Shown here piece by piece: positions 10,148 to 60,584 of a DNA stretch of 64,000 bases; position 1 is the stretch's first letter; every line of letters begins with the position of its first letter. The notes under the pieces were generated by a model. The model ran no database searches. It was not told the DNA's origin and was given only the letters and a program-made list of their open reading frames with translations. Both the position numbers and the translations under genes were made by a program. This DNA comes from Candidatus Cloacimonadales bacterium (GTDB lineage: Bacteria > Cloacimonadota > Cloacimonadia > Cloacimonadales > JAFGVF01), in the NCBI GenBank assembly GCA_963663475.2, contig CAXXJV010000001.1, forward strand, positions 1,920,001-1,984,000, in the 5' to 3' direction.

Positions 10148-10218
10148 ACTCACCTCTTTTCGCAACTCTTGTAGTTTTTATTAGTGTGCTTGCGATAGAT
10201 TTTGCTAACTTCACGAAG

Positions 10219-10392: not shown

Positions 10393-10412
10393 CCGAACCT
10401 CCTAAATTTTTA

Positions 10413-10525: not shown

Positions 10526-10555
10526 ATAGAACTCAACCTCAAAATAGGAGATCAA

Positions 10556-13016: not shown

Positions 13017-13094
13017 TATAACCTCCTTTAATATTTGATGTATTTAACAACTAGTTAAATTTTTGTCAAGATATAAAAGTTATATAAGGAAATG

Positions 13095-13411
13095 ATCGAG
13101 ATCTCGTTCGTTGTCTCAAATCAAGAATTTAAAACCGATATCTCACGTGAGACAGCGAGATATCGGTTGTTTTTTGAATCCTAAACCCACAACTAGCTAC
13201 TAACATAAAGACATACAATAGATTAGTAGCATAGCAAATTCCCCAAACAACCTGTAAAGCTAGCAGAGAAGTTGTAAAAAATACCTGCAAATGTAGTTAA
13301 AATGGAAATTTTGAGACATCGATTGAGACGGCGTGTAAGTGGCGAATAAATAACACTTTATACAAGTTAACTAGCGATGTCTCACATGGAAAACTTGGGT
13401 GTCACTTTTTA
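13095..13411. repeat. ~310-bp transposable-phage end (end B), copy 1
   Basis: Homologous to 18103-18404 and 28523-28841; all stop at ...GTCACTTTTTA; multiple TGAGAC/GTCTCA motifs and an ACCGATATCTC...GAGATATCGGT palindrome. Confidence 0.85.
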
Positions 13412-18102: not shown

Positions 18103-18404
18103 ATCGAGATCTCGATCGCTGTCTCAAATCAACATATGCAAACCGATATCTCAGCTGAGACGGTGAGATATCGGTAGTTTTTTGAAGCATAAACCCACAA
18201 CTAGCTACTAAGATAAAGACTTACAGGAGATTAGTAGCTTAGCAAACTCTCCAAACATCCTTTAAAACTAGCAGAGAAATTGTAAAAAATACCTGCATAA
18301 GCTGTTAAATAGGAAATTTTGAGACATCGTTGAGACAGCGTGTAAATAACTAATAAATAGCACCGATATACATCTCACAGGGAAAACTTGGGTGTCACTT
18401 TTTA
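18103..18404. repeat. ~300-bp transposable-phage end (end B), copy 2
   Basis: Direct repeat of 13095-13411. Confidence 0.85.
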
Positions 18405-28430: not shown

Positions 28431-28522
28431 AGGATTTTTATTTATAGTCGTCTCTTTCTCAACTTACACTTCCTTAGCTTGGAAGAGAGAAAAAAAGATA
28501 GAGACATTTAGTATAGCAAATT

Positions 28523-28841
28523 ACCAAGGTCTCGCTCCCTGCTCAGATCAACAATCTAAAACCGATGTCTCACTTGAGACGGCGAGATCTCGGTGGCTTT
28601 TTTCGAATCCCAAACCAACAACTAGCTACTAAGATAAAGACTTACAGGAGATTAGTAGCTTAGCAAACTCTCCAAACATCCTTTAAAACTAGCAGAGAAA
28701 TTGTAAAAAAATACCTGCAAAAGCTGTTAAATAGGAAATTTTTAGACATCGGTTGAGACAGCGTGTAAATAACTAATAAATAGCACTTTATAAGAAGCTC
28801 CTATAGATATCTCACATGGAAAATTTGGCTGTCACTTTTTA
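28523..28841. repeat. ~315-bp transposable-phage end (end B), copy 3
   Basis: Direct repeat of 13095-13411 and 18103-18404; truncates a host gene at 28841. Confidence 0.85.
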
Positions 28842-29942: not shown

Positions 29943-30109
29943 TTATCTTATCATTCCTTCCTCTTCCCCTCCTCCTTAATACTCATCTTAATTAAAAATC
30001 GAATAATATTTAGGATGTGTGAGAAGGAGCATGGGAAGACAAAACAAAGAGGATAAAACATAATCCCGAATGGTGCAGTAGAGCTTTACAGAAGAGTGCA
30101 GATTCTTTT

Positions 30110-30970
30110 AGTGTTATCGAGAGCCAAGCTATCTATGCATACCAAAATAGACTAATCTTCTCTTATATCACTAATGATACATTCAAAGTGTTTGATATTG
30201 ATCCTCAAGATTTATCCCAAACTGCAACTTATTCCTTTCCTTCTCAGCGTGGTGTTGCTCTACAAGATTTTATTATCGGAAATAAGTTCTATAACATTCA
30301 GAACTATAATGATAATTTAACTTTAGCTTGCTATGATTTAGATAATGATTTTGCTCAAGTATGGCAGGAAACTATTGCTGAGAATGTTATGAGTGACTTC
30401 GTTATTGAAAAGTTAAATAATAGATTTGTTGTTGCTTATACTCAAGGTACTGAAGGAAGCGAAAGAGTTTCTCTCAGAACTATTAGTTTTTTGGGTAATA
30501 GTGATCAGTATGAAGAGGGCTGTGCTTTACCTTTAAACTTAGAGAGTCAGTACGGTCCTACTATAAGTGTGCTTGATGATAACACAATCTTCGTTAACAG
30601 AATTGAGAATAATTCAGCTGATAATCCTGGTGTTTATTGTGATTTAATAGACCTTAGTTACTTTGTTCCAAATAGTTCTGAAGATGTGTCTCCTTTTACT
30701 TTCACAGCAACAAATTATCCAAATCCTTTTAATCCTGAGACTACTATTTCTTATAATCTTACTAAAGCTGGAGTTACTAAAGTTGAGGTCTTTAATTTGA
30801 AAGGTCAGTTAGTAAAGACTTTAGTTAATGAGGTACAGTCTGCTGGGAATCAAAAGGTTATTTGGAGAGGTAATAATGAGCAAGATAAACAGGTAAGCTC
30901 AGGAATTTATCTGTATAAAATTAAAAGTACAGGTGGTGTTATAAGTGGGAAGATGGTGTTGATGAAATAG
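30110..30970 (+). pseudogene. Start-less 3' fragment of a paralogue of the 941-aa T9SS-CTD protein
   Basis: Aligns to the last ~285 aa of 31508-34321; no signal peptide or RBS; preceded by a MITE-like end at 30065. Confidence 0.85.
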
Positions 30971-31038
30971 GGTCTTGCTTTGCAAGAATTAAAAATGAAA
31001 AATAGAAGAGTAAAACTTTCAGGCGAATTTACACGAAT

Positions 31039-31372
31039 GTAGGGGAGATAGATTTTTTGCCCTTCTATAAAACAAGATAAATACATCTTTCGTCGGACGG
31101 TGGACATTCTGTCTGCCATTCTCTTAAACTCCCCGCTTTAGTACTGAAGGTAGGTTTAAAGAGGGGTGTGGCTTGGTATTTCCAAGACAGGGTGTTTTGT
31201 GAGTCAAGCAGGGATTAATAAAATAATCAGGCTGATTACAGCCTGATGGAAGCAGAGACACTCCACACATAGTTTCGCTCATCTGGAATATGTAAACTAT
31301 GGACTGGTAACACCCTTGCCACCACTCCATAAACCATAAAGCTATGCTATTGGAAAAGGTAGCATACTGATT
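31039..31372. repeat. GC-richer intergenic cluster of short palindromes, including a degenerate REP (31039-31062)
   Basis: GTAGGGGAGATAGATTTTTTGCCC, ATCAGGCTG-ATTA-CAGCCTGAT, CTTGG..CCAAG and TATGCTA..TAGCATA hairpins. Confidence 0.6.
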
Positions 31373-31507
31373 GAATAGTCTTAATTCATTTCAATTAAAA
31401 AATAATACATAATAATTGACAAAAAACGTACTAGAAGTAAAAAACGTACTAGAAGTAAAAAATGTAAATGTAAATAAATATTACAGTTTAACTTATTGGG
31501 AGGAACA

Positions 31508-34321
31508 ATGAGAAAATATCTGCTACTAATAGTTGTAACTTTGCTATGCTCTTTATCAAGCTTATTAGCACAAGTAGTTTGGGATAACTCGTCCTGTGTA
31601 TATAGTGTCGACAATAGGAAAAGTGAATTAATATCAAAACAGGATATTGCAACTGGGTCCTTAGTATTTTATAGACTTAATAATCAACTTGTATTTGAAA
31701 AACTGGATAACTTAGGAAATCCAATCACAGATCAAGTAATAGATTTGAATATACAAGTTAATGAAGAATCGATTTTAACAGTTAGAAAAAGTTATGATAA
31801 CAACTTTTTTATTTATTGGAGAGAAGAAAACTTGCTCAAGATTAAGAAAATCAGTGAAGAAGGCAGTGACCTATGGAATTCGTGTTTAAATATACCAATT
31901 CTAGATTATTCAAATAGGATTATTGATGGAATGCAAATTGTTGATGATGAAGAATCTGTCTATTTATTGGTAAATTACCAGAGTGATGTTTATGAGGAAG
32001 TCTTAGTAAGTTATCAGATTGATGTTATAAATAATAATCCTCAAGAGATTAATCAAAACATTATTTATGAAGCCGAGGGGCTTTCTTCTTTTACTGGAGC
32101 ATTAACAAGTGATGGTATAACTTACATGTGGTTACAAGCTGATGAAGATAAAATTTTCATCAAAATAAGTGAAACCATTCACGAGATAAACGGGCAAGTA
32201 GCTTATTCAACTCAACCTGGATGGAAAGTTAAAGAATGTAAAATTCTTGAGTTAAATGGAGATAAAACTCTTTACTGTTTAGTTGGTAAGTATTATGAGT
32301 CTTATAATGAAGGATTTTCAGACATTTATATCTATAATGAAGTGACAGAAAGTACTAGTGAAGTATTCACTAATCAAATTCTTATAGATGTTCAAAGAAT
32401 CTCTGATAATGAGTTTTTATCTGTGACTATGAGTGATAGTCTTTATTTTACAAGATATGATGCAGTAGGCGATATTATTTCTTCAGTTAGCCAGGAACAC
32501 TATTGTCATGGCTGGAGTCAAGATTGGATTTCTTATCAGCCTTATATCAAAAGTGTTGATTGTAGGCTTGAAAATGGGGAATATAAAATTGCTATTGGTT
32601 TTATCGGTGTGAGCAGTGACATTGTTACTCCTTCTACAGATTATAATTCCAAATTAGGTATTTATAGCTACAATTTAGCAAATGATCAGACATCAGCTGT
32701 TTTGGGTGACCTAGGGAATTTTACAGAAAATAGAATTTCACTTTATGTAAGTATGGGAGATACAAGAGCATCTCTATTGAATAAATGTTATCAAGATAAT
32801 GATTCATCCTACAATCAATATTTTCTGGATTATAATCAAAATTCCCAAGTAAGTCATAATACTTATCAAATTGCATTAACTAGTATTTCATATTTAAGAG
32901 AAATGAACTCTTTTATTTGGAATGGTAACAGTCGTGTAATAATGAAAGTAAATAATTCATTATTGGAAAATGAGATTAATGACATTGGAGAAATAATCAT
33001 GGAAAATTATCAAGAGACAAATTCTCCTATGTATATACTTGAAAATTTTTCAGAGAATAATTATGTACTTCTTTATGCCTATAACTATGATTATTTTGAT
33101 GACTTTGGAGTAACTGAAGTTACATACGATGTAAGAGCTAAGTTTTATAAAGACAACGGTAGCATTAGTATTGAAGATATGCCTTGTGAATCGAATTTGC
33201 AATCATATTTGGATATTGAAGACGGTGATGGTTTATGGATGACTCCTTTTTATTCTTCTAGTTTCCAAATTCGTAGAATAGAAAATGGAGTACTTCAAGA
33301 CCCAATAGATTCCTGGTTTGAGTATGGTAATATACTTATGGTGAAAAATAATTATCTAATCAAGAATGGCGATCATCAGTTTCTTATTACTAAAATTAAC
33401 GATTTCGGTTCTATAACTGAAGGCTGGACTCTTGATGGCTATAGCTTTACAGAAGAGTATGATATCAATATTAGAAATAAAGAGATTTTCAAATATCAAA
33501 ACAGACTAATATTCTCTTATTTAACAGGAGCAAATTATAAAATACTTGATGTTAATCCAGAGGATTTGGCCCAAACAACTAGCTATGTTTTTCCATGTAC
33601 TTATATTAATGAGAAGAATGATTTTATTATCGGGAATAAATTCTATAATATACATAATTATGATTCGCAGTTAACAATATCATGCTATGATATAGATAAC
33701 AATTTTGCAGAAGTATGGCAAGAATCAGTTGCAGAAAATGTTAGGGATTATGATATTAAAGTCGTAAATAATAGATTTGTTGTTGCTTATACTCAAGGTA
33801 CTGAAGGAAGCGAAAGAGTTTATCTCAGAACTATTAGTTTTTTGGGTAATAGTGATCAGTATGAAGAGGGCTATGCTTTACCTTTAAACTTAGATAGTCA
33901 GTACGATCCTACTATAAGTGTGCTTGATGATAACACTATCTTCGTTAACAGAATTGAGAATAATTCAGCTGATAATCCTGGTGTTTATTGTGATTTAATA
34001 GACCTTAGTTACTTTGTTCCAAATAGTTCTGAAGATGTGTCTCCTTTTACTTTCACAGCAACAAATTATCCAAATCCTTTTAATCCTGAGACTACTATTT
34101 CTTATAATCTTACTAAAGCTGGAGTTACTAAAGTTGAGGTCTTTAATTTGAAAGGTCAGTTAGTAAAGACTTTAGTTAATGAGGTACAGTCTGCTGGGAA
34201 TCAAAAGGTTATTTGGAGAGGTAATAATGAGCAAGATAAACAGGTAAGCTCAGGAATTTATCTGTATAAAATTAAAAGTACAGGTGGTGTTATAAGTGGG
34301 AAGATGGTGTTGATGAAATAG
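31508..34321 (+). CDS. Large secreted/surface protein with T9SS type A / FlgD-Ig sorting domain, copy 1
   Basis: Signal peptide MRKYLLL...AQ; C-terminal NYPNPFNPETT...KMVLMK; GGAGG RBS. Confidence 0.9.
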   Translation: MRKYLLLIVVTLLCSLSSLLAQVVWDNSSCVYSVDNRKSELISKQDIATGSLVFYRLNNQLVFEKLDNLGNPITDQVIDLNIQVNEESILTVRKSYDNNFFIYWREENLLKIKKISEEGSDLWNSCLNIPILDYSNRIIDGMQIVDDEESVYLLVNYQSDVYEEVLVSYQIDVINNNPQEINQNIIYEAEGLSSFTGALTSDGITYMWLQADEDKIFIKISETIHEINGQVAYSTQPGWKVKECKILELNGDKTLYCLVGKYYESYNEGFSDIYIYNEVTESTSEVFTNQILIDVQRISDNEFLSVTMSDSLYFTRYDAVGDIISSVSQEHYCHGWSQDWISYQPYIKSVDCRLENGEYKIAIGFIGVSSDIVTPSTDYNSKLGIYSYNLANDQTSAVLGDLGNFTENRISLYVSMGDTRASLLNKCYQDNDSSYNQYFLDYNQNSQVSHNTYQIALTSISYLREMNSFIWNGNSRVIMKVNNSLLENEINDIGEIIMENYQETNSPMYILENFSENNYVLLYAYNYDYFDDFGVTEVTYDVRAKFYKDNGSISIEDMPCESNLQSYLDIEDGDGLWMTPFYSSSFQIRRIENGVLQDPIDSWFEYGNILMVKNNYLIKNGDHQFLITKINDFGSITEGWTLDGYSFTEEYDINIRNKEIFKYQNRLIFSYLTGANYKILDVNPEDLAQTTSYVFPCTYINEKNDFIIGNKFYNIHNYDSQLTISCYDIDNNFAEVWQESVAENVRDYDIKVVNNRFVVAYTQGTEGSERVYLRTISFLGNSDQYEEGYALPLNLDSQYDPTISVLDDNTIFVNRIENNSADNPGVYCDLIDLSYFVPNSSEDVSPFTFTATNYPNPFNPETTISYNLTKAGVTKVEVFNLKGQLVKTLVNEVQSAGNQKVIWRGNNEQDKQVSSGIYLYKIKSTGGVISGKMVLMK

Positions 34322-34483
34322 GGTCTTGCTTTGCAAGAATTAAAAATGAAAAATAAAAGTGGAATAATAAATTCCCTGGATTTGATAGATTCTCTTTTTT
34401 TATTTAAAAATAAATCTATTTTGCAGATAAGAGACAAGAGGTTATATGGATTATTTAAAATATATTTTTCTTTTAAACAAAGA

Positions 34484-35215
34484 GGGTGTATGGCAATACA
34501 CCCCTACAATACCCGGTTTTAGATACGTAATATATCTGTAATAATAAAATGTATTATATATGAGAAATCACAAATACAATCCAGAAATCCATAATCGTCG
34601 TTCTATCAGACTGAAGAAATATGATTATTCCCAGCCTGGACTCTATTTTATTACCCTTTGCACCAAAAACAGAGAATTTCTCTTTGGTGAAATCAATAAT
34701 GAAAAAATGTTGCTGAATGATGCAGGGATTATTGTTATGCAAGAATGGGAGAAAACGCAACAAATAAGAAAAAATATTAAATTAGGTGAATATGTGATAA
34801 TGCCTAATCATTTTCATGCAATCATACAAATAGAATATCAAATCATGACATCTTCTTCTGAAAATAACAAGAAATTCCAATCACCAACCCAAACCATCGG
34901 TGCAATTATGCGAGGATTTAAAGGTTCAACAACATTAAAAATAAATAAAAACCTACCAGCCCGTAATCATGGTAGGGGCGTATTGCCATACGCCAGAAAT
35001 AATAATAATTCAGTCTGGCAAAGAAATTATTGGGAACACATCATCAGAACAGAAATCGAATATACCAAAATCACCGAATATATTATTAACAATCCTCTGT
35101 GTTGGGATAATGATATATTAAATGGGGGAGATGGGAATGTTGTCTTAGAATCTGAAACAGGTTATAATCAGGAAATCTGGATGATTTAGTTGTAGGAGCG
35201 AAACATCTTTCGCCC
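34484..35215 (+). mobile_element. RAYT locus 1 with GTAG-type REPs at 34484-34507 (inverted), 34972-34995 (inside the CDS) and 35192-35215
   Basis: GTAGGGGTGTATTGCCATACACCC (reverse complement), GTAGGGGCGTATTGCCATACGCC and GTAGGAGCGAAACATCTTTCGCCC. Confidence 0.88.
34560..35189 (+). CDS. REP-associated tyrosine transposase (RAYT, Y1 HUH)
   Basis: RRSIRLKKYDYS, YFITLCT, IMPNHFH, WQRNYWEHIIR, YIINNP. Confidence 0.93.
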   Translation: MRNHKYNPEIHNRRSIRLKKYDYSQPGLYFITLCTKNREFLFGEINNEKMLLNDAGIIVMQEWEKTQQIRKNIKLGEYVIMPNHFHAIIQIEYQIMTSSSENNKKFQSPTQTIGAIMRGFKGSTTLKINKNLPARNHGRGVLPYARNNNNSVWQRNYWEHIIRTEIEYTKITEYIINNPLCWDNDILNGGDGNVVLESETGYNQEIWMI

Positions 35216-35474
35216 AGAAAGATTATTTTATTATAATTATCAAATATGTTATTGACATATATTAATTAATAAATATTAATTGTAATTTATAATATTTAGT
35301 AATATTATGTAAAATATTATTATAATTATTGCTTTAATAATTAAATATCCAGAGGTAGTTTTTATGAAATTACGATTTCACAATGAGAGGAAGAAAATTA
35401 TACTTGATCCTTCTAGATCAGCGATAAGTTACTGTAAAATTGTATTTAAAATTTAAACAAGGAGAAAATATTAC

Positions 35475-35657
35475 GTAAAATTCTTAGCATCATTGAATAA
35501 CGACGAATATGCCGCACTGAGTAAAAAATTATGGGGAATTCAACAACATAAGTGTTTCATTTGTGAAGAAGATATTGATTTAGAACTTAATAAAACAGAT
35601 ATAGATCACATAGAACCATTAGCAAAAAAAGGACTAGCTACAGAGAAACTTGCTTAA
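35475..35657 (+). pseudogene. N-terminal fragment of an HNH endonuclease
   Basis: KFLASL...QQHKCFICEEDIDL...DIDHIEPLAKKG then stop; AAGGAG RBS upstream but the start codon is lost. Confidence 0.7.
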
Positions 35658-36169
35658 TCAGTGAAGATGTATCTATTTCTGTATTGGTTATGTTAGTTAG
35701 TGATATTCCAGATCTTATAGTAGCAAAGGATTTATTCTCCATACTACTTAGTCCGACATCATTTATCTTACAAACTCCTATTTATATGTTTAAAATCCTC
35801 CACCTCGATGTTATAACTATTCTCACTTTGATGAATAGAAAGTAATGATATTCCATGGTTATAAAGTTGTAAAAACATCATACAGATATTTAGGATAATT
35901 TTACTATAAGTTAAAAAGAAATCAAAGCTGATGTTGTTCTTTTCAGATTCTATATTTTAAACTAGTGTGAAATTTTCAGAATAGTAAATATTAACCTCAA
36001 ATTAGATATAATTGATTATAAAAAAAGTGACAGTAGGAATGTATATTAGCTAAAATAAACTAAATTAAAACTTTTATGTAATATTATAGTAATATCACAT
36101 AATAAATCTTGACAAAAAAATAAATAAGTAATATATAGTATATTGTAACTAAATTAAAAGGAGAAAATT

Positions 36170-37051
36170 ATGTTTTTTAAACGTATAATCCCAATTTTAG
36201 GGATATTACTAGTAATCGCAGGTTGTAACCAAGATATAGTAGGGGGGCATTCTACTAAAAACAGAGAAGTAAGAGCTTTTGATGAAAGTAATGTAGGTTA
36301 TGCCTACAATATTCACGAAGAAAATGTCAAGTCTATTTGTACTTGTCCTGAAGTAACAGCAATGATCAAGTCAAAAAAGAGCAATGGTGAAACTGAATTA
36401 AATGAAAAAGATTTTAATGTAATAATTGATGCAGCTAAGCAAATGCCATACTATGATTCAACTTTACAAATGGGAATCTTATCAATGATGGATTTCACAA
36501 AAAGCACACTATTCAATGAAAATAATGGACAATATTCCATGAAATCATTTGAACAAATTAATGATGACTTGAATACCTTGATTGTATCAAATGATAATAT
36601 CAATAAAATGTGGCAAATAGAATTAAAGGCTAGAGCTAACTTTTACGTTAACACTGAGAAGTATAGTCCAGAAAAAGCCATTGTTATGTTTTATAAAGAA
36701 ATTAGTGTAATAAAGTATTTAAATTTCAATAATAACTATGAAGTATCTGCTGCTGAAAACTATTTTGGTGTGGCAAAAAACTCTTTAGATATATGGGAAA
36801 AATACCAGACTTGCTGGGGGACGTTTAATCCAACAATCCCTTTGTTAGCTTGGAGCACAGGAAGAGCTGATGCTGTAGGAGCTTTAACAGGGACATATGT
36901 AGGTGGTTTGATTGGAGGAGCGGTTGGAACAATAGTTTTACCTGGTGGAGGTACTGTAGCAGGCGGTGGGGTTGGAATTGGAGCAGGTGGAACTTTAGGA
37001 TGCGTGTTATTCTCTAGTGTATATAAAATTGCCCAGTTAGCTAAATATTAA
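36170..37051 (+). CDS. Lipoprotein with C-terminal glycine-zipper segment (putative pro-toxin A)
   Basis: Lipobox IAG-C; C-terminal GALTGTYVGGLIGGAVG...GGGVGIGAGGTLG. Confidence 0.75.
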   Translation: MFFKRIIPILGILLVIAGCNQDIVGGHSTKNREVRAFDESNVGYAYNIHEENVKSICTCPEVTAMIKSKKSNGETELNEKDFNVIIDAAKQMPYYDSTLQMGILSMMDFTKSTLFNENNGQYSMKSFEQINDDLNTLIVSNDNINKMWQIELKARANFYVNTEKYSPEKAIVMFYKEISVIKYLNFNNNYEVSAAENYFGVAKNSLDIWEKYQTCWGTFNPTIPLLAWSTGRADAVGALTGTYVGGLIGGAVGTIVLPGGGTVAGGGVGIGAGGTLGCVLFSSVYKIAQLAKY

Positions 37052-37064
37052 TAGAGGAATAATA

Positions 37065-37907
37065 ATGAAATTTCAAATTATAATAATCCAAATATTTATT
37101 GTCAGTTTAATATTAAGTGGATGTTCTAAAAGTCAAGATGATACTAATACCAAAATAGTAAATCCTAAAGGAGGGTACAGTTGCTCTCAAGATAATATAT
37201 TTAAATATGACAATATACATACTGAATTTGTTGAAGATGCTTGTCTAGATGACGAAGTAGTAAAAGTTATGGCTGATGCTGATAGAGAGGGTATTTTGTT
37301 GGAAAATTACTTATCTGTTGAAGAAATAATTAAACAGAAATATTACAAGATGTTTGATCTAGATGAGATTTACCTGACTGATGAACTATTTAACAACTCA
37401 GTATCAATAAACTTAAATATTTCGAATGGATACGTTCATAAATTTAATGTGCTACAGATTAGAGACTGTATAGCTAGTAGAAGAACTAATATAAAAGAAC
37501 TAGATGAACTAATTGATAAGTTTGTCCTATATACTGACGAATTTATAAAGGAATATCCTATAAATAGCGATTTAGCCACTAATAACTTCTATAATAAAAT
37601 TCTCTTACTACAGAAAAAGGAATATGAAACTCAAGAAGGATGCTTCTTTGCTGAAGTTCTTGTTGGTACTGTTAAAAGTTCGTATAGATTTAGATCCTCC
37701 TATAGTGACTATTGGGGATATTGTACTCCTTCGCTTGCCGCTGGAGACTGGGGTTTTTGGGGAGACGTAGCTGGAATTGTTCTTGGGGCCGGTATTGGAG
37801 GTGCTTCAGGTGGAATTGTTGGAGCATTAGTCGGAATTTCTAAGCTTGGTCCTTTACTCTCAACAGTTAGTGCAGGCATTGGAGCTATTGTAACAGAAGA
37901 ATTTTAA
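37065..37907 (+). CDS. Lipoprotein with C-terminal glycine-zipper segment (putative pro-toxin B)
   Basis: Lipobox LSG-C; C-terminal GIVLGAGIGGASGGIVGALVG. Confidence 0.75.
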   Translation: MKFQIIIIQIFIVSLILSGCSKSQDDTNTKIVNPKGGYSCSQDNIFKYDNIHTEFVEDACLDDEVVKVMADADREGILLENYLSVEEIIKQKYYKMFDLDEIYLTDELFNNSVSINLNISNGYVHKFNVLQIRDCIASRRTNIKELDELIDKFVLYTDEFIKEYPINSDLATNNFYNKILLLQKKEYETQEGCFFAEVLVGTVKSSYRFRSSYSDYWGYCTPSLAAGDWGFWGDVAGIVLGAGIGGASGGIVGALVGISKLGPLLSTVSAGIGAIVTEEF

Positions 37908-37908
37908 T

Positions 37909-38274
37909 ATGAAAAACTTCTTTAAGTACCTAATTCACTTTATTTTTCAAATACTTGTTGTCTTATTAATATGGCATAAGCAATATAGTGATATTGGAGA
38001 TATGTTGAATGCTCTTTTTTATTTTCCATTATATGCATACCCTTTATCATTAACGATTGGTAGATGGTCTGACTTTAAAATAATGAATAAAAGATATTAT
38101 GACAAATATCTACTTAGGGATATATCATTGAATTTTATCCTTGGAGGTCTATATTTACCAATACACTTTTTAATAAGTAATGAATTTTTTATTATATATT
38201 TCATTTTAGTATTGGTTTTTAAAAATATTTTGGATATAAGAAATGTAAGAACATTAATCAGAGTAGATGAATAA
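37909..38274 (+). CDS. Small multi-pass membrane protein (putative immunity protein)
   Basis: 121 aa with ~4 hydrophobic segments, 1 bp after the preceding stop. Confidence 0.6.
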   Translation: MKNFFKYLIHFIFQILVVLLIWHKQYSDIGDMLNALFYFPLYAYPLSLTIGRWSDFKIMNKRYYDKYLLRDISLNFILGGLYLPIHFLISNEFFIIYFILVLVFKNILDIRNVRTLIRVDE

Positions 38275-38369
38275 CTAGATTGTTAGGTAATGGGATAATC
38301 ATTACCTAACTTTTTTTTGATATTCTATTATGATAAAAGTATTTATCAAATTATTTTTTCAAGTATTTT

Positions 38370-38609
38370 GGTCGTATTGCCATACGCCCAAAATAATAAT
38401 AATTCAGTCTGGCAAAGAAATTATTGGGAACATATCATCAGAACAGAAATAGAATATACCAAAATCTCCCAATATATAATTAACAATCCTCTGTGTTGGG
38501 ATAATGATAAATTAAATGGGGGAGATGGGAATGTGGTTTTAGAAGATGAAATAGAGTATAAATTAGAAATATGGATGGTATGATTGTAGGGGCGAAACAT
38601 CTTTCGCCC
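38370..38609 (+). pseudogene. Displaced 3' third of a RAYT gene with its downstream REP (38586-38609)
   Basis: Homology to RAYT starts inside the internal REP (CGTATTGCCATACGCCC); the C-terminus matches the 60774 copy. Confidence 0.88.
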
Positions 38610-38636
38610 AGAAAGGAAATATTGCAGTCATTTGGG

Positions 38637-40541
38637 GTGCGTCACGAGGTGGTGTGCCGTCAACTGGTGAAAATCCAGTCTGGTTAATTTTCTGTTCAAC
38701 CAGAAGTGAAAAAGACAGGCTTGTTCAGTAATGGCAAGTCTGAAGCTCTTTGAATCGGTAAGTAAGCCGTAGCGAAAGCGAACAGGTAGCTTCGTTAGAT
38801 AATTGTAATCGGTCAATCTTTCCCAATGGATGAAACCTGCTATTTGATAGGAAGTAACAGAAATATGCACTATCAAAGATTACTGGAGTTATAACTGATG
38901 GCGTGCTTATAAATGATTGCACACTAAACGTGAGAGAGCCTATTTAATAAGAGATGACAACTCTAAATGGATTTCTATAAGACGGAGTCGAAGTGAAATT
39001 CAGTTATTTAGGCAGTCGGAGATGCCCATAGTAGTGATGATATTTGAGACAACATAACTCAAAAGTAGCGAAGGGGCATTACTTCAAAGAAATTTACAAG
39101 ATAAGGAGAAAGTTGTGATTGATGAAAATCTAACAAACAAACGAAAAGCTGATTTATCAGCAGAGGAAAGAGTTCGAATTTTTCAACGTAAATTATATTC
39201 TAAAGCCAAACAAGAAAAGGATTTTCGTTTTTATGTACTGTATGATAAGTTAACAGTGGGATATTTTCTAAGTGAAGCTTGGAGAAGGGTAAAGTTAAAT
39301 AATGGGATTGCTGGATATGATAAAAAGAGTTTTTCTTATATTGAAGAATGTGGAATAACAGACTTTCTTTTTGAGATTCAACAAGAACTAAAAGACGAAA
39401 CTTATAAACCATCTCCAATACTACGAGTATATATTCCTAAAGCAAATGGTAAAATGAGGCCATTAGGTATTCCGACCATAAAAGATAGAGTAGTTCAAAT
39501 GTGTTGCAAGCTAATAATTGAACCAATCTTTGAAGCAGATTTTGAGGATTGTTCACATGGTTTCAGACCAAAGCGTTCAGCCCATGGAGCTATTAAAGAA
39601 ATAAAGTCTAACCTTAAAGCTGGAAAAACAGAAGTATATGATGCAGATTTGTCTGGTTACTTCGATAATATTCCACATGATAAACTAATGTATCTTGTGG
39701 AAAGAAGAATAACAGATAAAAGGATATTAAAGCTAATTAGAATGTGGCTAAAAACACCATATTTTGAGAAGAACAAATTGCACAAGAGTAAAAAGGGAAC
39801 ACCTCAAGGAGGCGTTATTTCCCCTTTACTGGCAAATATATACTTAAATCTTGTTGATAAAGCTATCAATAGGGAAGATGGATTTTTTCGCTAAAAGAGG
39901 CATAAAAATAGTACGTTATGCTGATGACTTTATCTTAATGGGAAAGCAAATACCCCAAGAGTGCTTATCGTATTTGCACAGAATGCTGGAAAGAATGGAG
40001 TTAACTGTTAATCTAGAAAAAACGAAACACCTGAATGCAACAAAACTATCTTTTGACTTTTTAGGTTTTACTTTTAGGTTTGATAAATCATTTTACAACT
40101 CGTATGGTTATTACTGGAATGTGATTCCAAGTAAAAAGAGTGTCAAAAAGTTTAAGGCAAATATTAAGAATTGTCTTATGAATAATGGACATTCATCAAA
40201 CTATACGATAGTAAAGAAGCTCAATCCAATATTAAGAGGTTGGACTAACTATTTTACAATACCTAAAGTAAGCTACCCTGCAAAGGCTAAAGATAGTGTT
40301 AATTCTTATCTCTTTTTTAGTCTAAAGAGGTATTATAAGCGCAAGAGTCAAAGGAGCTGTAAGCTTTATCGTCAAAATGCTCATGATAAGTTAATTAAAC
40401 ATTATGGTTTATATAACTTAGCATACAGGTCCTCTTGACAAACTTGTGAATGCTTAGAATGAACTTTGTCGGTAAGCCGTGTGCGGGAAAACCGCATGCA
40501 CGGTTTGAAGAGGGGGGCAGGGAATCCTGCCTCTACTCTAC
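38637..40541 (+). mobile_element. Group II intron (En-less IEP, AGC-triad domain V)
   Basis: 5' GTGCG; DV AGCCGTGTGCGGGAAAACCGCATGCACGGTT; DVI ending CTCTACTCTAC; putative EBS1 CCCAA at 38822-38826 complementary to exon TTGGG. Confidence 0.92.
39115..40438 (+). pseudogene. ltrA: Intron-encoded reverse transcriptase/maturase, frameshifted in a T6 run near 39885
   Basis: RPLGIPTIKDR, GTPQGGVISPLLANIYL, RYADDF, FDFLGF, maturase LRGWTNYF; removing one T restores GFFAKRG. Confidence 0.9.
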
Positions 40542-40710
40542 TTCATTATCTTATCATTCCTTCCTCTTCCCCTCCTCCTTAATACTCATCTTAATTAAAA
40601 ATCGAATAATATTTAGGATGAGTGAGAAGGAGCATGGGAAGACAAAACAAAGAGGATAAAACATAATCCCGAATGGTGCAGTAGAGCTTTACAGAAGAGT
40701 GCAGATTCTT

Positions 40711-41568
40711 AGTGTTATCGAGAGCCAAGCTATCTATGCATACCAAAATAGACTAATCTTCTCTTATATCACTAATGATACATTCAAAGTGTTTGATATT
40801 GATCCTCAAGATTTATCCCAAACTGCAACTTATTCCTTTCCTTCTCAGCGTGGTGTTGCTCAACAAGATTTTATTATCGGGAATAAATTCTATAATATAC
40901 ATAATTATGATTCGCAGATAACAATATCATGCTATGATATAGATAACAATTTTGCAGAAGTATGGCAAGAATCAGTTGCAGAAAATGTTAGGGATTATGA
41001 TATTAAAGTCGTAAATAATAGATTTGTTGTTGCTTATACTCAAGGTACTGAAGGAAGCGAAAGAGTTTATCTCAGAACTATTAGTTTTTTGGGTAATAGT
41101 GATCAGTATGAAGAGGGCTATGCTTTACCTTTAAACTTAGATAGTCAGTACGATCCTACTATAAGTGTGCTTGATGATAACACTATCTTCGTTAACAGAA
41201 TTGAGAATAATTCAGCTGATAATCCTGGTGTTTATTGTGATTTAATAGACCTTAGTTACTTTGTTCCAAATAACACTGAAAATGTGTCACCTCTTACTTT
41301 CACAGCAACAAATTATCCAAATCCTTTTAACCCTGAGACTACTATTTCTTATAATCTTACTAAAGCTGGAGTTACTAAAGTTGAGGTCTTTAATTTGAAA
41401 GGTCAGTTAGTAAAGACTTTAGTTAATGAAGTACAAGCTCAAGGTAATCAAAAGGTAATTTGGAAAGGCAATAATAATCAAGATAAACAGGTAAGCTCAG
41501 GAATTTATCTGTATAAAATTAAAAGTACAGGTGGTGTTATAAGTGGGAAGATGGTGTTGATGAAATAG
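40711..41568 (+). pseudogene. Start-less 3' fragment of the T9SS-CTD protein paralogue, copy 2
   Basis: Same as 30110-30970, but from DFIIG onward it matches the adjacent full gene. Confidence 0.85.
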
Positions 41569-41887
41569 GGTCTTGCTTTGCAAGAATTAAAAATGAAAAA
41601 TAGAAGAGTAAAACTTTCAGGCGAATTTACACGAATGTAGGGGAGATAGATTTTTTGCCCTTCTATAAAACAAGATAAATACATCTTTCGTCGGACGGTG
41701 GACATTCTGTCTGCCATTCTCTTAAACTCCCCGCTTTAGTACTGAAGGTAGGTTTAAAGAGGGGTGTGGCTTGGTATTTCCAAGACAGGGTGTTTTGTGA
41801 GTCAAGCAGGGATTAATTGTCAATAGCAGTTTAAATTGGTACAGTTTTGGCAGTTTAAAATGGTACACTATTGTAAATCATATTTCC

Positions 41888-44097: not shown

Positions 44098-44632
44098 ATT
44101 GTCTCCTAGATTTCTCTATTTTTTTATCTAGGAAACTGTACCAGATTAAACTGCCATTTGTGTACCAATTTAAAATGCCATCTACACCCTTCTATAAAAC
44201 AAGATAAATACATCTTTCGTCGGACGGTGGACATTCTGTCTGCCATTCTCTTAAACTCCCCGCTTTAGTACTGAAGGTAGGTTTAAAGAGGGGTGGCTTG
44301 GTATTTCCAAGACGGGGTGTTTTGTGAGTCAAGCAGGGATTAATAAAATAATCAGGCTGATTACAGCCTGATGGAAGCAGAGACACTCCACACATAGTTT
44401 CGCTCATCTGGAATATGTAAACTATGGACTGGTAACACCCTTGCCACCACTCCATAAACCATAAAGCTATGCTATTGGAAAAGGTAGCATACTGATTGAA
44501 TAGTCTTAATTCATTTCAATTAAAAAATAATACATAATAATTGACAAAAAACGTACTAGAAGTAAAAAAAGTACTAGAAGTAAAAAATGTAAATGTAAAT
44601 AAATATTACAGTTTAACTTATTGGGAGGAACA

Positions 44633-47446
44633 ATGAGAAAATATCTGCTACTAATAGTTGTAACTTTGCTATGCTCTTTATCAAGCTTATTAGCACAAGT
44701 AGTTTGGGATAACTCGTCCTGTGTATATAGTGTCGACAATAGGAAAAGTGAATTAATATCAAAACAGGATATTGCAACTGGGTCCTTAGTATTTTATAGA
44801 CTTAATAATCAACTTGTATTTGAAAAACTGGATAACTTAGGAAATCCAATCACAGATCAAGTAATAGATTTGAATATACAAGTTAATGAAGAATCGATTT
44901 TAACAGTTAGAAAAAGTTATGATAACAACTTTTTTATTTATTGGAGAGAAGAAAACTTGCTCAAGATTAAGAAAATCAGTGAAGAAGGCAGTGACCTATG
45001 GAATTCGTGTTTAAATATACCAATTCTAGATTATTCAAATAGGATTATTGATGGAATGCAAATTGTTGATGATGAAGAATCTGTCTATTTATTGGTAAAT
45101 TACCAGAGTGATGTTTATGAGGAAGTCTTAGTAAGTTATCAGATTGATGTTATAAATAATAATCCTCAAGAGATTAATCAAAACATTATTTATGAAGCAG
45201 AGGGGCTTTCTTCTTTTACTGGAGCATTAACAAGTGATGGTATAACTTACATGTGGTTACAAGCTGATGAAGATAAAATTTTCATCAAAATAAGTGAAAC
45301 CATTCACGAGATAAACGGGCAAGTAGCTTATTCAACTCAACCTGGATGGAAAGTTAAAGAATGTAAAATTCTTGAGTTAAATGGAGATAAAACTCTTTAC
45401 TGTTTAGTTGGTAAGTATTATGAGTCTTATAATGAAGGATTTTCAGACATTTATATCTATAATGAAGTGACAGAAAGTACTAGTGAAGTATTCACTAATC
45501 AAATTCTTATAGATGTTCAAAGAATCTCTGATAATGAGTTTTTATCTGTGACTATGAGTGATAGTCTTTATTTTACAAGATATGATGCAGTAGGCGATAT
45601 TATTTCTTCAGTTAGCCAGGAACACTATTGTCATGGCTGGAGTCAAGATTGGATTTCTTATCAGCCTTATATCAAAAGTGTTGATTGTAGGCTTGAAAAT
45701 GGGGAATATAAAATTGCTATTGGTTTTATCGGTGTGAGCAGTGACATTGTTACTCCTTCTACAGATTATAATTCCAAATTAGGTATTTATAGCTACAATT
45801 TAGCAAATGATCAGACATCAGCTGTTTTGGGTGACCTAGGGAATTTTACAGAAAATAGAATTTCACTTTATGTATGTATGGGAGATACAAGAGCATCTCT
45901 ATTGAATAAATGTTATCAAGATAATGATTCATCCTACAATCAATATTTTCTGGATTATAATCAAAATTCCCAAGTAAGTCATAATACTTATCAAATTGCA
46001 TTAACTAGTATTTCATATTTAAGAGAAATGAACTCTTTTATTTGGAATGGTAACAGTCGTGTAATAATGAAAGTAAATAATTCATTATTGGAAAATGAGA
46101 TTAATGACATTGGAGAAATAATCATGGAAAATTATCAAGAGACAAATTCTCCTATGTATATACTTGAAAATTTTTCAGAGAATAATTATGTACTTCTTTA
46201 TGCCTATAACTATGATTATTTTGATGACTTTGGAGTAACTGAAGTTACATACGATGTAAGAGCTAAGTTTTATAAAGACAACGGTAGCATTAGTATTGAA
46301 GATATGCCTTGTGAATCGAATTTGCAATCATATTTGGATATTGAAGACGGTGATGGTTTATGGATGACTCCTTTTTATTCTTCTAGTTTCCAAATTCGTA
46401 GAATAGAAAATGGAGTACTTCAAGACCCAATAGATTCCTGGTTTGAGTATGGTAATATACTTATGGTGAAAAATAATTATCTAATCAAGAATGGCGATCA
46501 TCAGTTTCTTATTACTAAAATTAACGATTTCGGTTCTATAACTGAAGGCTGGACTCTTGATGGCTATAGCTTTACAGAAGAGTATGATATCAATATTAGA
46601 AATAAAGAGATTTTCAAATATCAAAACAGACTAATATTCTCTTATTTAACAGGAGCAAATTATAAAATACTTGATGTTAATCCAGAGGATTTGGCCCAAA
46701 CAACTAGCTATGTTTTTCCATGTACTTATATTAATGAGAAAAATGATTTTATTATCGGGAATAAATTCTATAATATACATAATTATGATTCGCAGATAAC
46801 AATATCATGCTATGATATAGATAACAATTTTGCAGAAGTATGGCAAGAATCAGTTGCAGAAAATGTTAGGGATTATGATATTAAAGTCGTAAATAATAGA
46901 TTTGTTGTTGCTTATACTCAAGGTACTGAAGGAAGCGAAAGAGTTTATCTCAGAACTATTAGTTTTTTGGGTAATAGTGATCAGTATGAAGAGGGCTATG
47001 CTTTACCTTTAAACTTAGATAGTCAGTACGATCCTACTATAAGTGTGCTTGATGATAACACTATCTTCGTTAACAGAATTGAGAATAATTCAGCTGATAA
47101 TCCTGGTGTTTATTGTGATTTAATAGACCTTAGTTACTTTGTTCCAAATAACACTGAAAATGTGTCACCTCTTACTTTCACAGCAACAAATTATCCAAAT
47201 CCTTTTAACCCTGAGACTACTATTTCTTATAATCTTACTAAAGCTGGAGTTACTAAAGTTGAGGTCTTTAATTTGAAAGGTCAGTTAGTAAAGACTTTAG
47301 TTAATGAAGTACAAGCTCAAGGTAATCAAAAGGTAATTTGGAAAGGCAATAATAATCAAGATAAACAGGTAAGCTCAGGAATTTATCTGTATAAAATTAA
47401 AAGTACAGGTGGTGTTATAAGTGGGAAGATGGTGTTGATGAAATAG
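44633..47446 (+). CDS. Large secreted/surface protein with T9SS type A / FlgD-Ig sorting domain, copy 2
   Basis: Near-identical to 31508-34321; differences concentrated near the CTD. Confidence 0.9.
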   Translation: MRKYLLLIVVTLLCSLSSLLAQVVWDNSSCVYSVDNRKSELISKQDIATGSLVFYRLNNQLVFEKLDNLGNPITDQVIDLNIQVNEESILTVRKSYDNNFFIYWREENLLKIKKISEEGSDLWNSCLNIPILDYSNRIIDGMQIVDDEESVYLLVNYQSDVYEEVLVSYQIDVINNNPQEINQNIIYEAEGLSSFTGALTSDGITYMWLQADEDKIFIKISETIHEINGQVAYSTQPGWKVKECKILELNGDKTLYCLVGKYYESYNEGFSDIYIYNEVTESTSEVFTNQILIDVQRISDNEFLSVTMSDSLYFTRYDAVGDIISSVSQEHYCHGWSQDWISYQPYIKSVDCRLENGEYKIAIGFIGVSSDIVTPSTDYNSKLGIYSYNLANDQTSAVLGDLGNFTENRISLYVCMGDTRASLLNKCYQDNDSSYNQYFLDYNQNSQVSHNTYQIALTSISYLREMNSFIWNGNSRVIMKVNNSLLENEINDIGEIIMENYQETNSPMYILENFSENNYVLLYAYNYDYFDDFGVTEVTYDVRAKFYKDNGSISIEDMPCESNLQSYLDIEDGDGLWMTPFYSSSFQIRRIENGVLQDPIDSWFEYGNILMVKNNYLIKNGDHQFLITKINDFGSITEGWTLDGYSFTEEYDINIRNKEIFKYQNRLIFSYLTGANYKILDVNPEDLAQTTSYVFPCTYINEKNDFIIGNKFYNIHNYDSQITISCYDIDNNFAEVWQESVAENVRDYDIKVVNNRFVVAYTQGTEGSERVYLRTISFLGNSDQYEEGYALPLNLDSQYDPTISVLDDNTIFVNRIENNSADNPGVYCDLIDLSYFVPNNTENVSPLTFTATNYPNPFNPETTISYNLTKAGVTKVEVFNLKGQLVKTLVNEVQAQGNQKVIWKGNNNQDKQVSSGIYLYKIKSTGGVISGKMVLMK

Positions 47447-47608
47447 GGTCTTGCTTTGCAAGAATTAAAAATGAAAAATAAAAGTGGAATAATAAATTCC
47501 CTGGATTTGATAGATTCTCTTTTTTTATTTAAAAATAAATCTATTTTGCAGATAAGAGACAAGAGGTTATATGGATTATTTAAAATATATTTTTCTTTTA
47601 AACAAAGA

Positions 47609-48340
47609 GGGTGTATGGCAATACACCCCTACAATACCCGGTTTTAGATACGTAATATATCTGTAATAATAAAATGTATTATATATGAGAAATCACAAAT
47701 ACAATCCAGAAATCCATAATCGTCGTTCTATCAGACTGAAGAAATATGATTATTCCCAGCCTGGACTCTATTTTATTACCCTTTGCACCAAAAACAGAGA
47801 ATTTCTCTTTGGTGAAATCAATAATGAAAAAATGTTGCTGAATGATGCAGGGGTTATTGTTATGCAAGAATGGGAGAAAACGCAACAAATAAGAAAAAAT
47901 ATTAAATTAGGTGAATATGTGATAATGCCTAATCATTTTCATGCAATCATACAAATAGAATATCAAATCATGACATCTTCTTCTGAAAATAACAAGAAAT
48001 TCCAATCACCAACCCAAACCATCGGTGCAATTATGCGAGGATTTAAAGGTTCAACAACATTAAAAATAAATAAAAACCTACCAGCCCGTAATCATGGTAG
48101 GGGCGTATTGCCATACGCCCAAAATAATAATAATTCAGTCTGGCAAAGAAATTATTGGGAACACATCATCAGAACAGAAATCGAATATACCAAAATCTCA
48201 CAATATATAATTAACAATCCTCTGTGTTGGGATAATGATAAATTAAATGGGGGAGATGGGAATGCTGTTTTGGAAGATGAAATAGATTATAATTTAAAAT
48301 TATGGATGGTATGATTGTAGGGGCGAAACATCTTTCGCCC
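47609..48340 (+). mobile_element. RAYT locus 2 with REPs at 47609-47632, 48097-48120 and 48317-48340
   Basis: Same layout as locus 1, without the cassette. Confidence 0.88.
47685..48314 (+). CDS. REP-associated tyrosine transposase (RAYT), copy 2
   Basis: HUH and catalytic Tyr motifs as in copy 1. Confidence 0.93.
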   Translation: MRNHKYNPEIHNRRSIRLKKYDYSQPGLYFITLCTKNREFLFGEINNEKMLLNDAGVIVMQEWEKTQQIRKNIKLGEYVIMPNHFHAIIQIEYQIMTSSSENNKKFQSPTQTIGAIMRGFKGSTTLKINKNLPARNHGRGVLPYAQNNNNSVWQRNYWEHIIRTEIEYTKISQYIINNPLCWDNDKLNGGDGNAVLEDEIDYNLKLWMV

Positions 48341-48664
48341 AGAAAGGAAATATTGCAGTCATTTGGGTGCTCTACTCTCTCCAAAATCATAAAGTTTTAA
48401 TTATTTGATAAATAGAAGAATTAAACCTCTTAAATTTGTGACACAGGTTTTTCCATACCAATTAGTATGAAAAAAGTGAAGTCACAATTTCCATTACTGC
48501 AATAATAATCTACTTAAATATCAATATAATAAATACTTAGAAGATGTCTCAATTATTAATCAGTTTATTAATATTTTTAAGTAAGTAATCTACGTCTCCC
48601 TATCATTTGCTGTTTATGACTAATTTTACATTGAACCTAAAAACTGAAAAATTATGATGTACAT

Positions 48665-49141
48665 TATAAAGTGACAGGCGTTTTTTCCTTGTTGTGACAG
48701 CGTGATTTCCATCTTGCAACATATTGAATAGACTTTTATACCCTTTAAACTCCCACACATTAGACACTTAACCTATGACGTCAATGCAAACTGCAAGTGA
48801 CTGAAGTTTTTCCTCTTTGCTTTTAACATCAGCCATTAATGAAAAATAGCTGTCATTTGGGTGACACCATTATTTCCATTTTATAAAGTACTGACTATTA
48901 AACATATAGCCAATATTTACACTTTAAATTTATGACACAGGTTTTTTCATAAGTGTTGAGATGGAAAAAGTGAAGTCATAGCTTTTTGATAACTAAAATA
49001 TCTTTAATATTAAAATAACTTATGATTATTTATCATCTTTCTCGTTATCTCAAAACTTTTTAAGCAAAATCGATGTATCACTTGAGATAGTGAGATATCG
49101 GTTGTTTTAATAAGACATAAACCACAATTGAATACTAAAAT
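48665..49141. mobile_element. Non-autonomous mini element: end A (TATAAAGTGAC...) joined to the inner part of end B, cut by an IS
   Basis: Terminus is the inverted counterpart of GTCACTTTTTA; several RTGAC-N6/7-TTTTCC-like sites; 49041-49141 is homologous to the start of end B. Confidence 0.65.
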
Positions 49142-54991: not shown

Positions 54992-55591
54992 TCATAATAT
55001 CTTATCCAGATTAACATAAACATCATCAATTTGATCTTGGGTTATACCTATATAGCGAAGTGTTACAGCTTGGGAAGAGTGATTGAAAATTCTCATCAAT
55101 AATGAAAGATCAACTCCATTCTTATAAGCATGATAACCGAATGTTTTCCTTAAAGTGTGTGCGCCTATTTTACTCTTTATACCTGAACGATAACCATAAT
55201 CGTTTAGGAATTGCCATACATACTGTCTTGTCCAGGCTGATTTGGTAGCTGTGACGCTGTTTGAGTTCGACATGAATATAAAGTCTGCCTCTCGGGAATC
55301 CTTTAATTCTGCAAGCTGATTTACCGCCCTTTTGACATTGTCGGAAAGTCGGAACTGTTTATTCTTTCCTGTCTTTTTTTCTGTTACCATGATCGACTGT
55401 CTGAAAGTAGGGTTCTCACCTAACTCGGAATAGACGTCTTTCCATGTTAACTTAAGAATGTCGGAAATCCGTAAACCCGTCTTTATCCCTATTTCAAAAA
55501 GAACAAGTTCTTTTACTTTTCCGTCTTTCAACAGCAACTTCTTAATTCTTTGAAGTTTCTTTAAATCTCTTATTGGTTCAACATAATTCAT
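54992..55591 (-). CDS. Small tyrosine recombinase (catalytic domain only)
   Basis: MNYVEPIRD N-terminus; GLRISD, HTLRKT, FNHSS and TLRY motifs. Confidence 0.92.
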   Translation of the reverse strand: MNYVEPIRDLKKLQRIKKLLLKDGKVKELVLFEIGIKTGLRISDILKLTWKDVYSELGENPTFRQSIMVTEKKTGKNKQFRLSDNVKRAVNQLAELKDSREADFIFMSNSNSVTATKSAWTRQYVWQFLNDYGYRSGIKSKIGAHTLRKTFGYHAYKNGVDLSLLMRIFNHSSQAVTLRYIGITQDQIDDVYVNLDKIL

Positions 55592-60555: not shown

Positions 60556-60584
60556 GTTCGAAATTCATCCCACCACCTCCACCA
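60556..60584 (+). other. tmRNA/tRNA 3'-end-like fragment, candidate att site
   Basis: GTTCGAAATTCATCCCACCACCTCCACCA resembles a T-arm plus the CTCCACCA end of ssrA; no 5' half nearby. Confidence 0.5.

Follow-up and report, generated by a model that had tools for sequence, protein, structure and literature searches.

A cargo-filled RAYT locus in a Candidatus Cloacimonadales genome: evidence favours a homologous crossover downstream of the internal REP

Can a RAYT, the tyrosine transposase associated with repetitive extragenic palindromic (REP) sequences, capture foreign genes at a REP inside its own coding sequence? The question is raised by a locus in a stretch of 64,000 nucleotides from a Candidatus Cloacimonadales bacterium (GCA_963663475.2, contig CAXXJV010000001.1, positions 1,920,001 to 1,984,000), hereafter called the window. 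The genome (G000; 3.3 Mb, 33% GC) consists of two contigs, C1 and C2, and the window corresponds to C1:1920001-1984000. Coordinates without a contig name are window positions, and features lie on the forward strand unless stated otherwise. A sequence-only reading of the window had proposed that a circle carrying a RAYT 3' end, a REP and cargo integrated at the internal REP of a RAYT gene, as part of an integron-like capture system. Our analysis supports the structure but places the exchange elsewhere.

The window holds three full RAYT genes of 209 aa each, which are near-identical (94-97% aa): locus 1 (L1, 34560-35189; Pfam Y1_Tnp, E 1.5e-6) and the cargo-free loci 2 (L2, 47685-48314) and 3 (L3, 60774-61403). 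As had been described, every full copy contains an in-frame REP. This GTAG-footed hairpin lies at 34972-34995 in L1, where it is translated as GRGVLPYA, and its equivalents start at 48097 in L2 and 61186 in L3. At L1, the order is full RAYT gene, REP, cargo, a second RAYT 3' end (F1), REP and flank. The parts listed in the sequence-only reading are all present: L1 is intact with a variant 3' end, ending ESETGYNQEIWMI, and is followed by a REP of the variant allele at 35192-35215, the cargo and the second 3' end. F1 (38373-38583) covers amino acids 141-209, begins in the left arm of the hairpin and has no GTAG foot. Its start lies 3394 bp past the matching L1 base (34979), in agreement with the reported offset between filled and empty alleles. 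Chance does not account for the second 3' end: identity reaches 89% over 246 bp and 96-98% over 267 bp. Behind it, at 38586-38636, follow a REP (38586-38609) and the start of the flank common to L2, L3 and a fragment named F2, a fifth RAYT copy at C1:1905548, just outside the window, which begins ~50 nt upstream of the hairpin. F1 thus does share the flank of the cargo-free loci, but for just 27 bp past the REP, as a group II intron begins at 38637. The flank common to the RAYT loci is also a free repeat at five RAYT-less places in the genomes G003, G004 and G006.

One 3292-bp contig of run X17 spans 35111-38402, and with it both cargo junctions, with 0 differences and a depth of 64.8 vs 67.2 for the single-copy intron; another X17 contig spans the intron, from 38607 to 40571. 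In the same run, the RAYT body reaches 3.3x and the REP stretch 4.1x the single-copy depth, fitting three and four copies. X17 may be the genome's own source sample and is used here as a test of the assembly, not as a second population. A misassembly that strung strain variants of a single locus together in tandem might be suspected, as the region is rich in repeats and contig C2 (1-11050, 305896-331003) repeats ~35 kb of C1 (1-21552, 1366173-1391213; present twice in C1) at 94-99.9%. The X17 contigs across both junctions and the intron, the depths matching copy numbers and the recurrence of the cargo/F1 junction in a further metagenome locus (L067, below) largely refute this and leave it a very slim chance. 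The filled structure is real, and the observation is confirmed.

The site of exchange can be read from allelic differences, with columns numbered from the matching base (34979 in L1, 38373 in F1). L1 is identical to L3 at 676/679 positions up to 35072 and at 126/149 after it. Compared with the L2=L3 consensus, taken here as the resident sequence, L1 differs at columns 16-17, where its letters are private, and then from column 94 onwards. F1 differs from the same consensus at columns 60 and 78 alone, both before the exchange interval and both shared with F2. Since F2 combines the F1 letters at 60 and 78 with the L1 variant alleles at columns 94, 97, 105 and 137, these six columns belong to one variant haplotype. 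The marker pattern therefore makes L1 resident in its 5' part and variant in its 3' part and makes F1 variant, then resident. Both switch inside one 15-bp interval, whose letters agree between L1 and F1, at 35058-35072 (38452-38466 in F1). This fits a single crossover, which the single-nucleotide polymorphisms (SNPs) place 63-77 nt downstream of the internal REP. Integration at the internal REP would predict variant letters in L1 and resident letters in F1 throughout; this is contradicted by the markers, as L1 keeps resident alleles at three post-REP markers and F1 has non-resident letters at two of these. The two private changes in the L1 hairpin, at 34995-34996, alter the last stem base and shorten the stem. 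Contigs of runs X17 and X20 show the L2/L3 letters there, and the L1 changes may be an assembly error, although the contigs are not decisive.

Our preferred explanation, to which we assign a probability of roughly 0.55, is a homology-driven (Campbell-type) single crossover of a circle composed of a RAYT 3' part, a REP and cargo into the resident RAYT gene. The crossover position is taken from the SNPs, and we infer the circle and the action of the host's general recombination (RecA). Earlier and elsewhere, a relic beginning at the internal hairpin would have been joined, by breakage or a template switch at that hairpin, to a mobile three-gene cassette. The DNA between two direct-repeat RAYT ends may then have looped out as the circle, which would have entered the resident gene by one homologous crossover within ~240 bp of shared coding sequence, at 35058-35072. 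What results would be a full gene carrying the incoming 3' allele, followed by a REP, the cargo and the resident 3' end, displaced together with its flank. Through homology, the RAYT gene would act as a landing pad, RAYT catalysis being unnecessary. From the circle model of the sequence-only reading, the net layout survives, namely the entry of a circle by one crossover, after which the gene is complete but its 3' end has changed. Neither the REP as the site nor a need for the RAYT enzyme is upheld; homologous recombination alone largely suffices for the structure. The C-terminus left in L1 is not new either, as tails like it end RAYT copies in the sister species G002 and G003. The L2 tail is a third 3' allele, close to that of the relative G004, and matches neither L1 nor F1. 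The tails are natural alleles, not products of an integration event, and the RAYT 3' half exists in the genus as several alleles and many relics.

The three-gene cassette invoked here (36075-38319) also occurs without RAYT or REP. A scan of metagenomes found 2 loci that hold it. L066, from another species, carries the cassette at 98.5% over 2265 bp, ending near 38319, with no RAYT and no REP; a neighbouring housekeeping gene is 76% identical to that of G000. There the cassette lies between two genes that, from the look of their translations, are presumably riboflavin-synthesis-like and flavin-reductase-like. A contig of run X2 departs from the window sequence at 38319. L067 holds the exact cargo/half-REP junction of F1 behind upstream sequence that is 99% identical; past the junction stands a different RAYT haplotype (104/122 vs F1), which contains a stop codon. 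Taken together, L066 and L067 indicate that the cassette moves without RAYT and that another population has the same joint between cassette and half hairpin. Near-identical cassette DNA was also seen in landfill and aquatic metagenome runs.

The same layout could have arisen with no circle, if a pre-built block of RAYT end, REP, cargo and RAYT fragment arrived on linear DNA through two crossovers, or if it was ancestral and later altered by gene conversion. The cargo-free copies would then be other alleles or direct-repeat deletions, and host recombination alone would again be at work. The cargo in L067, already joined to a RAYT fragment, is in keeping with this, as is the L2 3' end, whose mismatch with both L1 and F1 means that a later exchange occurred. 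L1 and L2 lie within a tandem segmental duplication (31060-35221 vs 44187-48346, 98.7%), whose copies differ at just 5 sites across 2.8 kb of 31190-34025 and carry ~200-bp allele blocks, with 19 differences in 34026-34231 and 25 in 34995-35197, as if from different strains. The route without a circle needs two independent crossovers in the same 15 bp of ~240 bp of homology, and L2 is not a simple L1-F1 deletion product. We therefore treat it as a tentative alternative. As a control, we compared the four 3' ends of a gene for a 941-aa protein, which are block mosaics, A=C giving way first to A alone and then to A=B; non-RAYT DNA nearby recombines in the same patchwork manner as the RAYT loci. 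The 941-aa protein has a secretion C-terminal domain, and its mosaic 3'-end copies lie at 30139-31008, 33493-34359, 40740-41606 and 46618-47484, two of them as orphan fragments. The tandem duplication, fragment F2 and the third 3' allele of L2 had been missed by the sequence-only reading, for which F2 lay out of sight.

By its motifs and its internal REP, the gene classes as an ordinary TnpA-REP of subclass 2.4. The HuH motif NH[IFV]H is represented by NHFH in all three full copies, and the WQ motif and the catalytic YIxNNP by WQRNY with YIINNP in L1 and L2 and YIIKNP in L3. The in-frame REP lies between the HuH motif and the Y motif, and GTAG-footed REPs flank the gene and are dispersed: one lies inverted upstream of L1 (34484-34507, reverse strand, 8-bp stem after GTAG) with equivalents in L2 and L3, and the GTAG-REP pattern has 17 matches in the genome, 9 of them away from RAYT copies. 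The NCBIfam model NF047646 scores 72.7-74.4 bits (L1 74.4), below its curated cut-off of 80, with E ~1e-20. In the available text of Quentin et al. 2018 (PMC6006769), an in-frame REP insertion is the unique hallmark of this subclass, equivalent to Bertels group 4, and the internal REP itself is therefore not new. The agreement with that description extends to NHFH, WQ, YIxNNP, a length of ~200 aa and GTAG-footed REPs both flanking the gene and in frame inside it. The copies here, at 94-97% aa identity, differ from the mean intragenomic identity of 40% given there, and the same text makes no mention of cargo placed between a gene and a fragment (PMC6006769). For comparison, related loci were taken as the best 80 of 574 in a species collection, 51 of them with at least 4 kb downstream. 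A loose finder, run with no null, flagged an internal hairpin on either strand in 65 of the best 80; the internal REP sits at ~nt 410 here vs ~250-290 in most of them. The closest RAYT relatives are the Candidatus Cloacimonadales loci L068 and L069.

What speaks for a part of the RAYT is the junction between cargo and F1. It falls within the left arm of the hairpin, with GTAG lost, and the top strand shows neither C|T nor C|A there. The bases directly to its left form an inverted stub (38364-38372) that pairs with the right flank of the hairpin through 5 pairs, one mismatch and 8 pairs (9 pairs in L067). Of these, 6-7 pairs are new, against a 6-mer background of 0.0015 genome-wide and 0.0095 in T-rich DNA. 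The F1 start does not look random, and the stub supports a REP-related origin; the junction itself may reflect folding back, or a switch of template, at the hairpin. Hairpins in general, however, favour template switching even where no transposase is at work.

A stronger proposal, adapted from the sequence-only reading, is that the RAYT nicks single-stranded DNA near REPs, frees REP-bearing circles with neighbouring genes and joins them back into the RAYT gene, with the result that cargo builds up at subclass 2.4 loci. All three full copies retain intact catalytic motifs, the junction carries the 6-7 nt inverted copy of the hairpin flank just described, and the left edge of the L1/L2 copy reads C then T. 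The exchange interval ends on C|T vs C|A at a distance of 77 nt from the REP on its 3' side, and PMC8266576 reports cleavage sites that lie far from the hairpin. In that source, characterised TnpA-REP enzymes cut C|T or C|A next to a hairpin with a GTAG foot, the E. coli enzyme leaves the inverse strand uncut, and the cleavage data come from enzymes outside subclass 2.4 (PMC8266576). Modules of RAYT tip, REP and TTGACA stand before different genes in G000, G002 and G006. A RAYT-less allele with one REP exists at the transfer-messenger RNA (tmRNA) site of G006 and as a joint in run X1, and in the genome G233 a cluster holds RAYT 5' pieces and REPs between small genes. Set against this, the exchange is not at the REP, the GTAG strand has no C|T or C|A at the junction, and the cassette is mobile without RAYT. 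We consider catalysed capture unlikely.

The survey of RAYT fragments bears on the same point. Seven fragment starts were counted in the genus: F1; F2 with its G003 orthologue, counted once; G002 at 3051329, 2819314 and 3053854; G003 at 3095225; and G006 at 1845861. Only that of F1 lies in the internal hairpin, which a 24-bp target in a gene of 630 bp gives about one time in four by chance; the other six start at columns ~-50, 39, 140, 164, 166 and 191, and two of these tips abut the ends of insertion sequences (IS). Breakage at varied positions thus describes the fragments largely, with six of seven outside the hairpin, but not F1. Two further non-hairpin starts are suggested by loose ends of contigs, at 35164 in X2 and at 34934 in X20; as each is seen in one contig only, neither was counted. 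Within the best 80 related loci, a downstream copy of a locus's own 3' coding end was found in 0 at a filter of 45 bp. The lone same-strand 3' coding piece among them (L082) was rejected, as it lies upstream and is itself a gene that a scaffold gap interrupts. In other genomes of the phylum, ten matches, solo or paired and several of them truncated by contig ends, gave no case of a full gene with cargo and its own 3' fragment; one of these genomes, G020, shows a plain 591-bp tandem duplication. In ten further genomes searched for fragments, 5 regions of 4 genomes were inspected and none had the layout. Exact-pattern scanning of metagenome contigs for the genus RAYT tail gave 0 matches, and viral contigs held no RAYT relative. 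A G002 unit of tip, REP, spacer, inverted REP and RAYT was considered as a permuted circle and rejected, as the orthologous G003 tip is longer and bounded by an IS end. The layout of a full gene, cargo and the gene's own 3' fragment was thus not met again among these loci.

RAYT-less alleles at the tmRNA site, in which the upstream region is joined to a single REP, lie at G006:C1:2259816-2259941 and at the X1 joint 34455-38583. A dense subclass 2.4 cluster, G233:C1:1275700-1287900 (L225:4760-16820), has two full RAYTs, tandem 125-bp units made of a RAYT 5' tip and a REP doublet, and more tip/REP modules that are set among small genes and an IS110-like gene. We take some of the small genes to be RelE-like and PIN-like from the look of their sequences. 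This cluster is a better place than the window in which to seek REP-driven cargo arrays.

Several observations weigh against the circle with a homologous crossover. The crossover position depends on two F1 markers. At a third, column 86, both products have the resident letter, and to explain this takes either a short tract of gene conversion or a donor not quite like F2. At the end of the exchange interval stands C|T in the resident and C|A in the variant sequence, which a TnpA-REP could use, although 468/614 (76%) of the 16-nt windows in the RAYT gene hold CT or CA; a RAYT cut there is possible, but the letters are uninformative. No free circle was detected as excess depth or a back-joint in four runs: X17 showed none, with cargo at single-copy depth, and contigs drop rare forms. 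X20, with a cargo depth of 87-113 vs 71 for the intron, was set aside for this purpose because its depth is uneven throughout and it contains a junction absent from G000; runs X3-X16 share ~0.35 of words. The 45-bp filter of the 80-locus survey misses short tips. The 5' end of L067 looks chimeric, and the haplotype behind its junction may be a false assembly join, although the junction letters themselves cannot come from such a join. Finally, the tie of the cargo/F1 junction to the hairpin gives RAYT involvement a small probability, and a solo RAYT fragment in G091, with no full gene on its 16.7-kb contig, likewise begins at its internal REP. The G091 start and the RAYT-less single-REP alleles indicate that REP-linked deletions occur.

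The cargo itself is a mosaic of pieces with separate matches elsewhere. It opens with an AT-rich module with a conserved TTGACA (35222-35290), which in sister species follows a REP or precedes RAYT or other genes; the first 50-190 bp of the cargo match post-REP, pre-RAYT or pre-gene sequence in G002, G003 and G006. In G002, the gene behind the module encodes a GmrSD-domain protein. The module stands before unrelated genes, with or without a REP, at G002:3051407, G002:2819367, G003:3096127, G006:1845943 and G006:1274927. It may act as a promoter; a promoter scan found 10 sites vs 3.9 in shuffles, none built on its TTGACA. That the RAYT 3' half is a reusable, self-restoring entry site, at which a REP-linked promoter module drives whatever cargo lands, and hence a gene-capture platform, seems doubtful to us.

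Next in the cargo comes a broken open reading frame (ORF) at 35364-35657 with a Cys-x2-Cys ... DHI.P motif, presumably HNH-like, and no Pfam match, followed by a short piece that also occurs in G005 and G008. The cassette then encodes a lipoprotein-like protein of 293 aa (36170-37051) with a glycine-rich hydrophobic C-terminus and no Pfam or NCBIfam family; a second lipoprotein-like protein of 280 aa (37065-37907) with a glycine-rich tail and no family above cut-off; and a hydrophobic, membrane-like protein of 121 aa (37909-38274) with no family, a piece of which matches G003 away from any RAYT. The 280-aa protein is a distant paralogue of the 293-aa one (24% identity, E 1.6e-5). For the latter, one homologue cluster at 98% was found, and its Atlas look-alikes lean to Bacteroidota (score 0.95, of low recognition value). 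A search of 232 genomes of the phylum for cargo protein returned G000 plus two weak 25% matches only. The lipoprotein-like pair with the small membrane-like protein (36170-38274) may form an antagonism or surface module.

How does the filled locus relate to known systems? The likeness to integrons is one of outline only: an enzyme gene, an AT-rich promoter-like stretch and small cargo genes. There is no array of single-gene cassettes; a genome-wide search for IntI (TIGR02249) gave 4 matches, 0 above cut-off, and a simple pattern search for attC consensus core-site pairs on both strands of 35190-38400 gave 0. No single fixed recombination site is reused by different cassettes, one of seven fragments starting in the hairpin and the exchange lying outside it. 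The integron-like architecture is thus not borne out, nor is a dedicated REP/RAYT capture system, given the varied fragment breaks, the cassette without RAYT, the junction in a second metagenome, the empty survey of the best 80 loci and the absence of IntI and attC. The ISCR transposase is a Y2 rolling-circle type. The protein here is a Y1_Tnp, and the right-hand homology ends differ among copies (61578, 61756 and 61761 equivalents), contrary to what ISCR or IS91 would show. The filled locus is neither an ISCR element nor an integron. It shares with ISCR1 complex class 1 integrons, as modelled by Toleman et al. in the available text of PMC7707992, an HUH neighbourhood, a cargo circle rescued by homologous recombination and a partial direct repeat left behind. 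In ISCR1, the transposase makes the circle via oriIS and terIS, whereas here no fixed origin-like end was found and the landing homology is the transposase gene. Islands in tmRNA genes restore their target and displace its 3' end, and a displaced tmRNA 3' end is also seen for the island around the RAYT loci. Insertion into a gene is likewise known from rulB integron-like elements and tRNA/tmRNA islands (PMC4542609). Such elements bring tyrosine recombinases of their own and enter at a single fixed site; the 3394-bp unit lacks a recombinase, and its homology is an ordinary stretch of ~240 bp.

This island spans ~76 kb, from the tmRNA gene (C1:1904454-1904803) to the displaced copy of its 3' end at 60569-60584 (C1:1980569), an att-like end, and holds most of the window, including a phage-integrase-family gene at 54992-55591. 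L3 occupies the tmRNA-adjacent site, and in G004 a RAYT gene lies directly behind the tmRNA 3' end. The group II intron (38637-40541; Rfam RF02003 and RF00029, Pfam RVT_1 and GIIM) sits at the joint of the tandem duplication with mismatched exons, the 5' exon being RAYT flank and the 3' exon the site at 29938/29939. Both exon sites (29938, 38636) end in TTGGG after a stem-loop, and the intron begins 27 bp past the REP hairpin; its reverse transcriptase ORF is split at ~39894, and G004 has a 97% partial copy. At a second duplication joint nearby, an IS21 lies within a 160-bp repeat, and an IS21-like element of ~2.37 kb has many copies in the genome. The island also contains what we take, from the look of the sequence, to be a Mu-like prophage remnant (2720-11284) with transposase, AAA partner, terminase-like and repressor-like ORFs. 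A dispersed repeat with a 58-nt imperfect palindrome lies at 61433-61600, 48344-48490 and 48838-49000, and is RAYT-free at five places in G003, G004 and G006. A palindromic repeat of ~100 bp, unrelated to the GTAG REPs, has well over 100 genome copies (for example C1:1902135-1902263, outside the window), and a further family occurs at 13087-13411, 18103-18404 and 28515-28841. A short repeat matching 30065-30108 is inserted in a G003 RAYT fragment (G003:C1:3075720-3075811), in the manner of a miniature inverted-repeat transposable element.

No report of RAYT-mediated cargo capture was found in the accessible literature, including the available text of PMC3733652, PMC5581495 and PMC4542609, a search that left subscription journals largely uncovered and supplements, such as Fig. 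S10 of PMC6006769, aside. A claim of capture would be new. What the evidence favours, however, is parts and a process that are already known, with a one-off insertion in a subclass 2.4 gene. If the RAYT did catalyse the exchange, this would supply a long-sought RAYT function and a new route of gene capture; why hosts keep RAYTs is posed as an open question in the available text of PMC5581495. The 15-bp interval and the fold-back junction make RAYT catalysis directly testable. As best explained by a circle entering through homology, the locus would be a natural example of a transposase relic giving homology for cargo delivery, of modest specialist interest, and it would show that in this lineage the subclass 2.4 REPtrons are not as static as the RAYTs of Proteobacteria, which are single-copy and inherited vertically.

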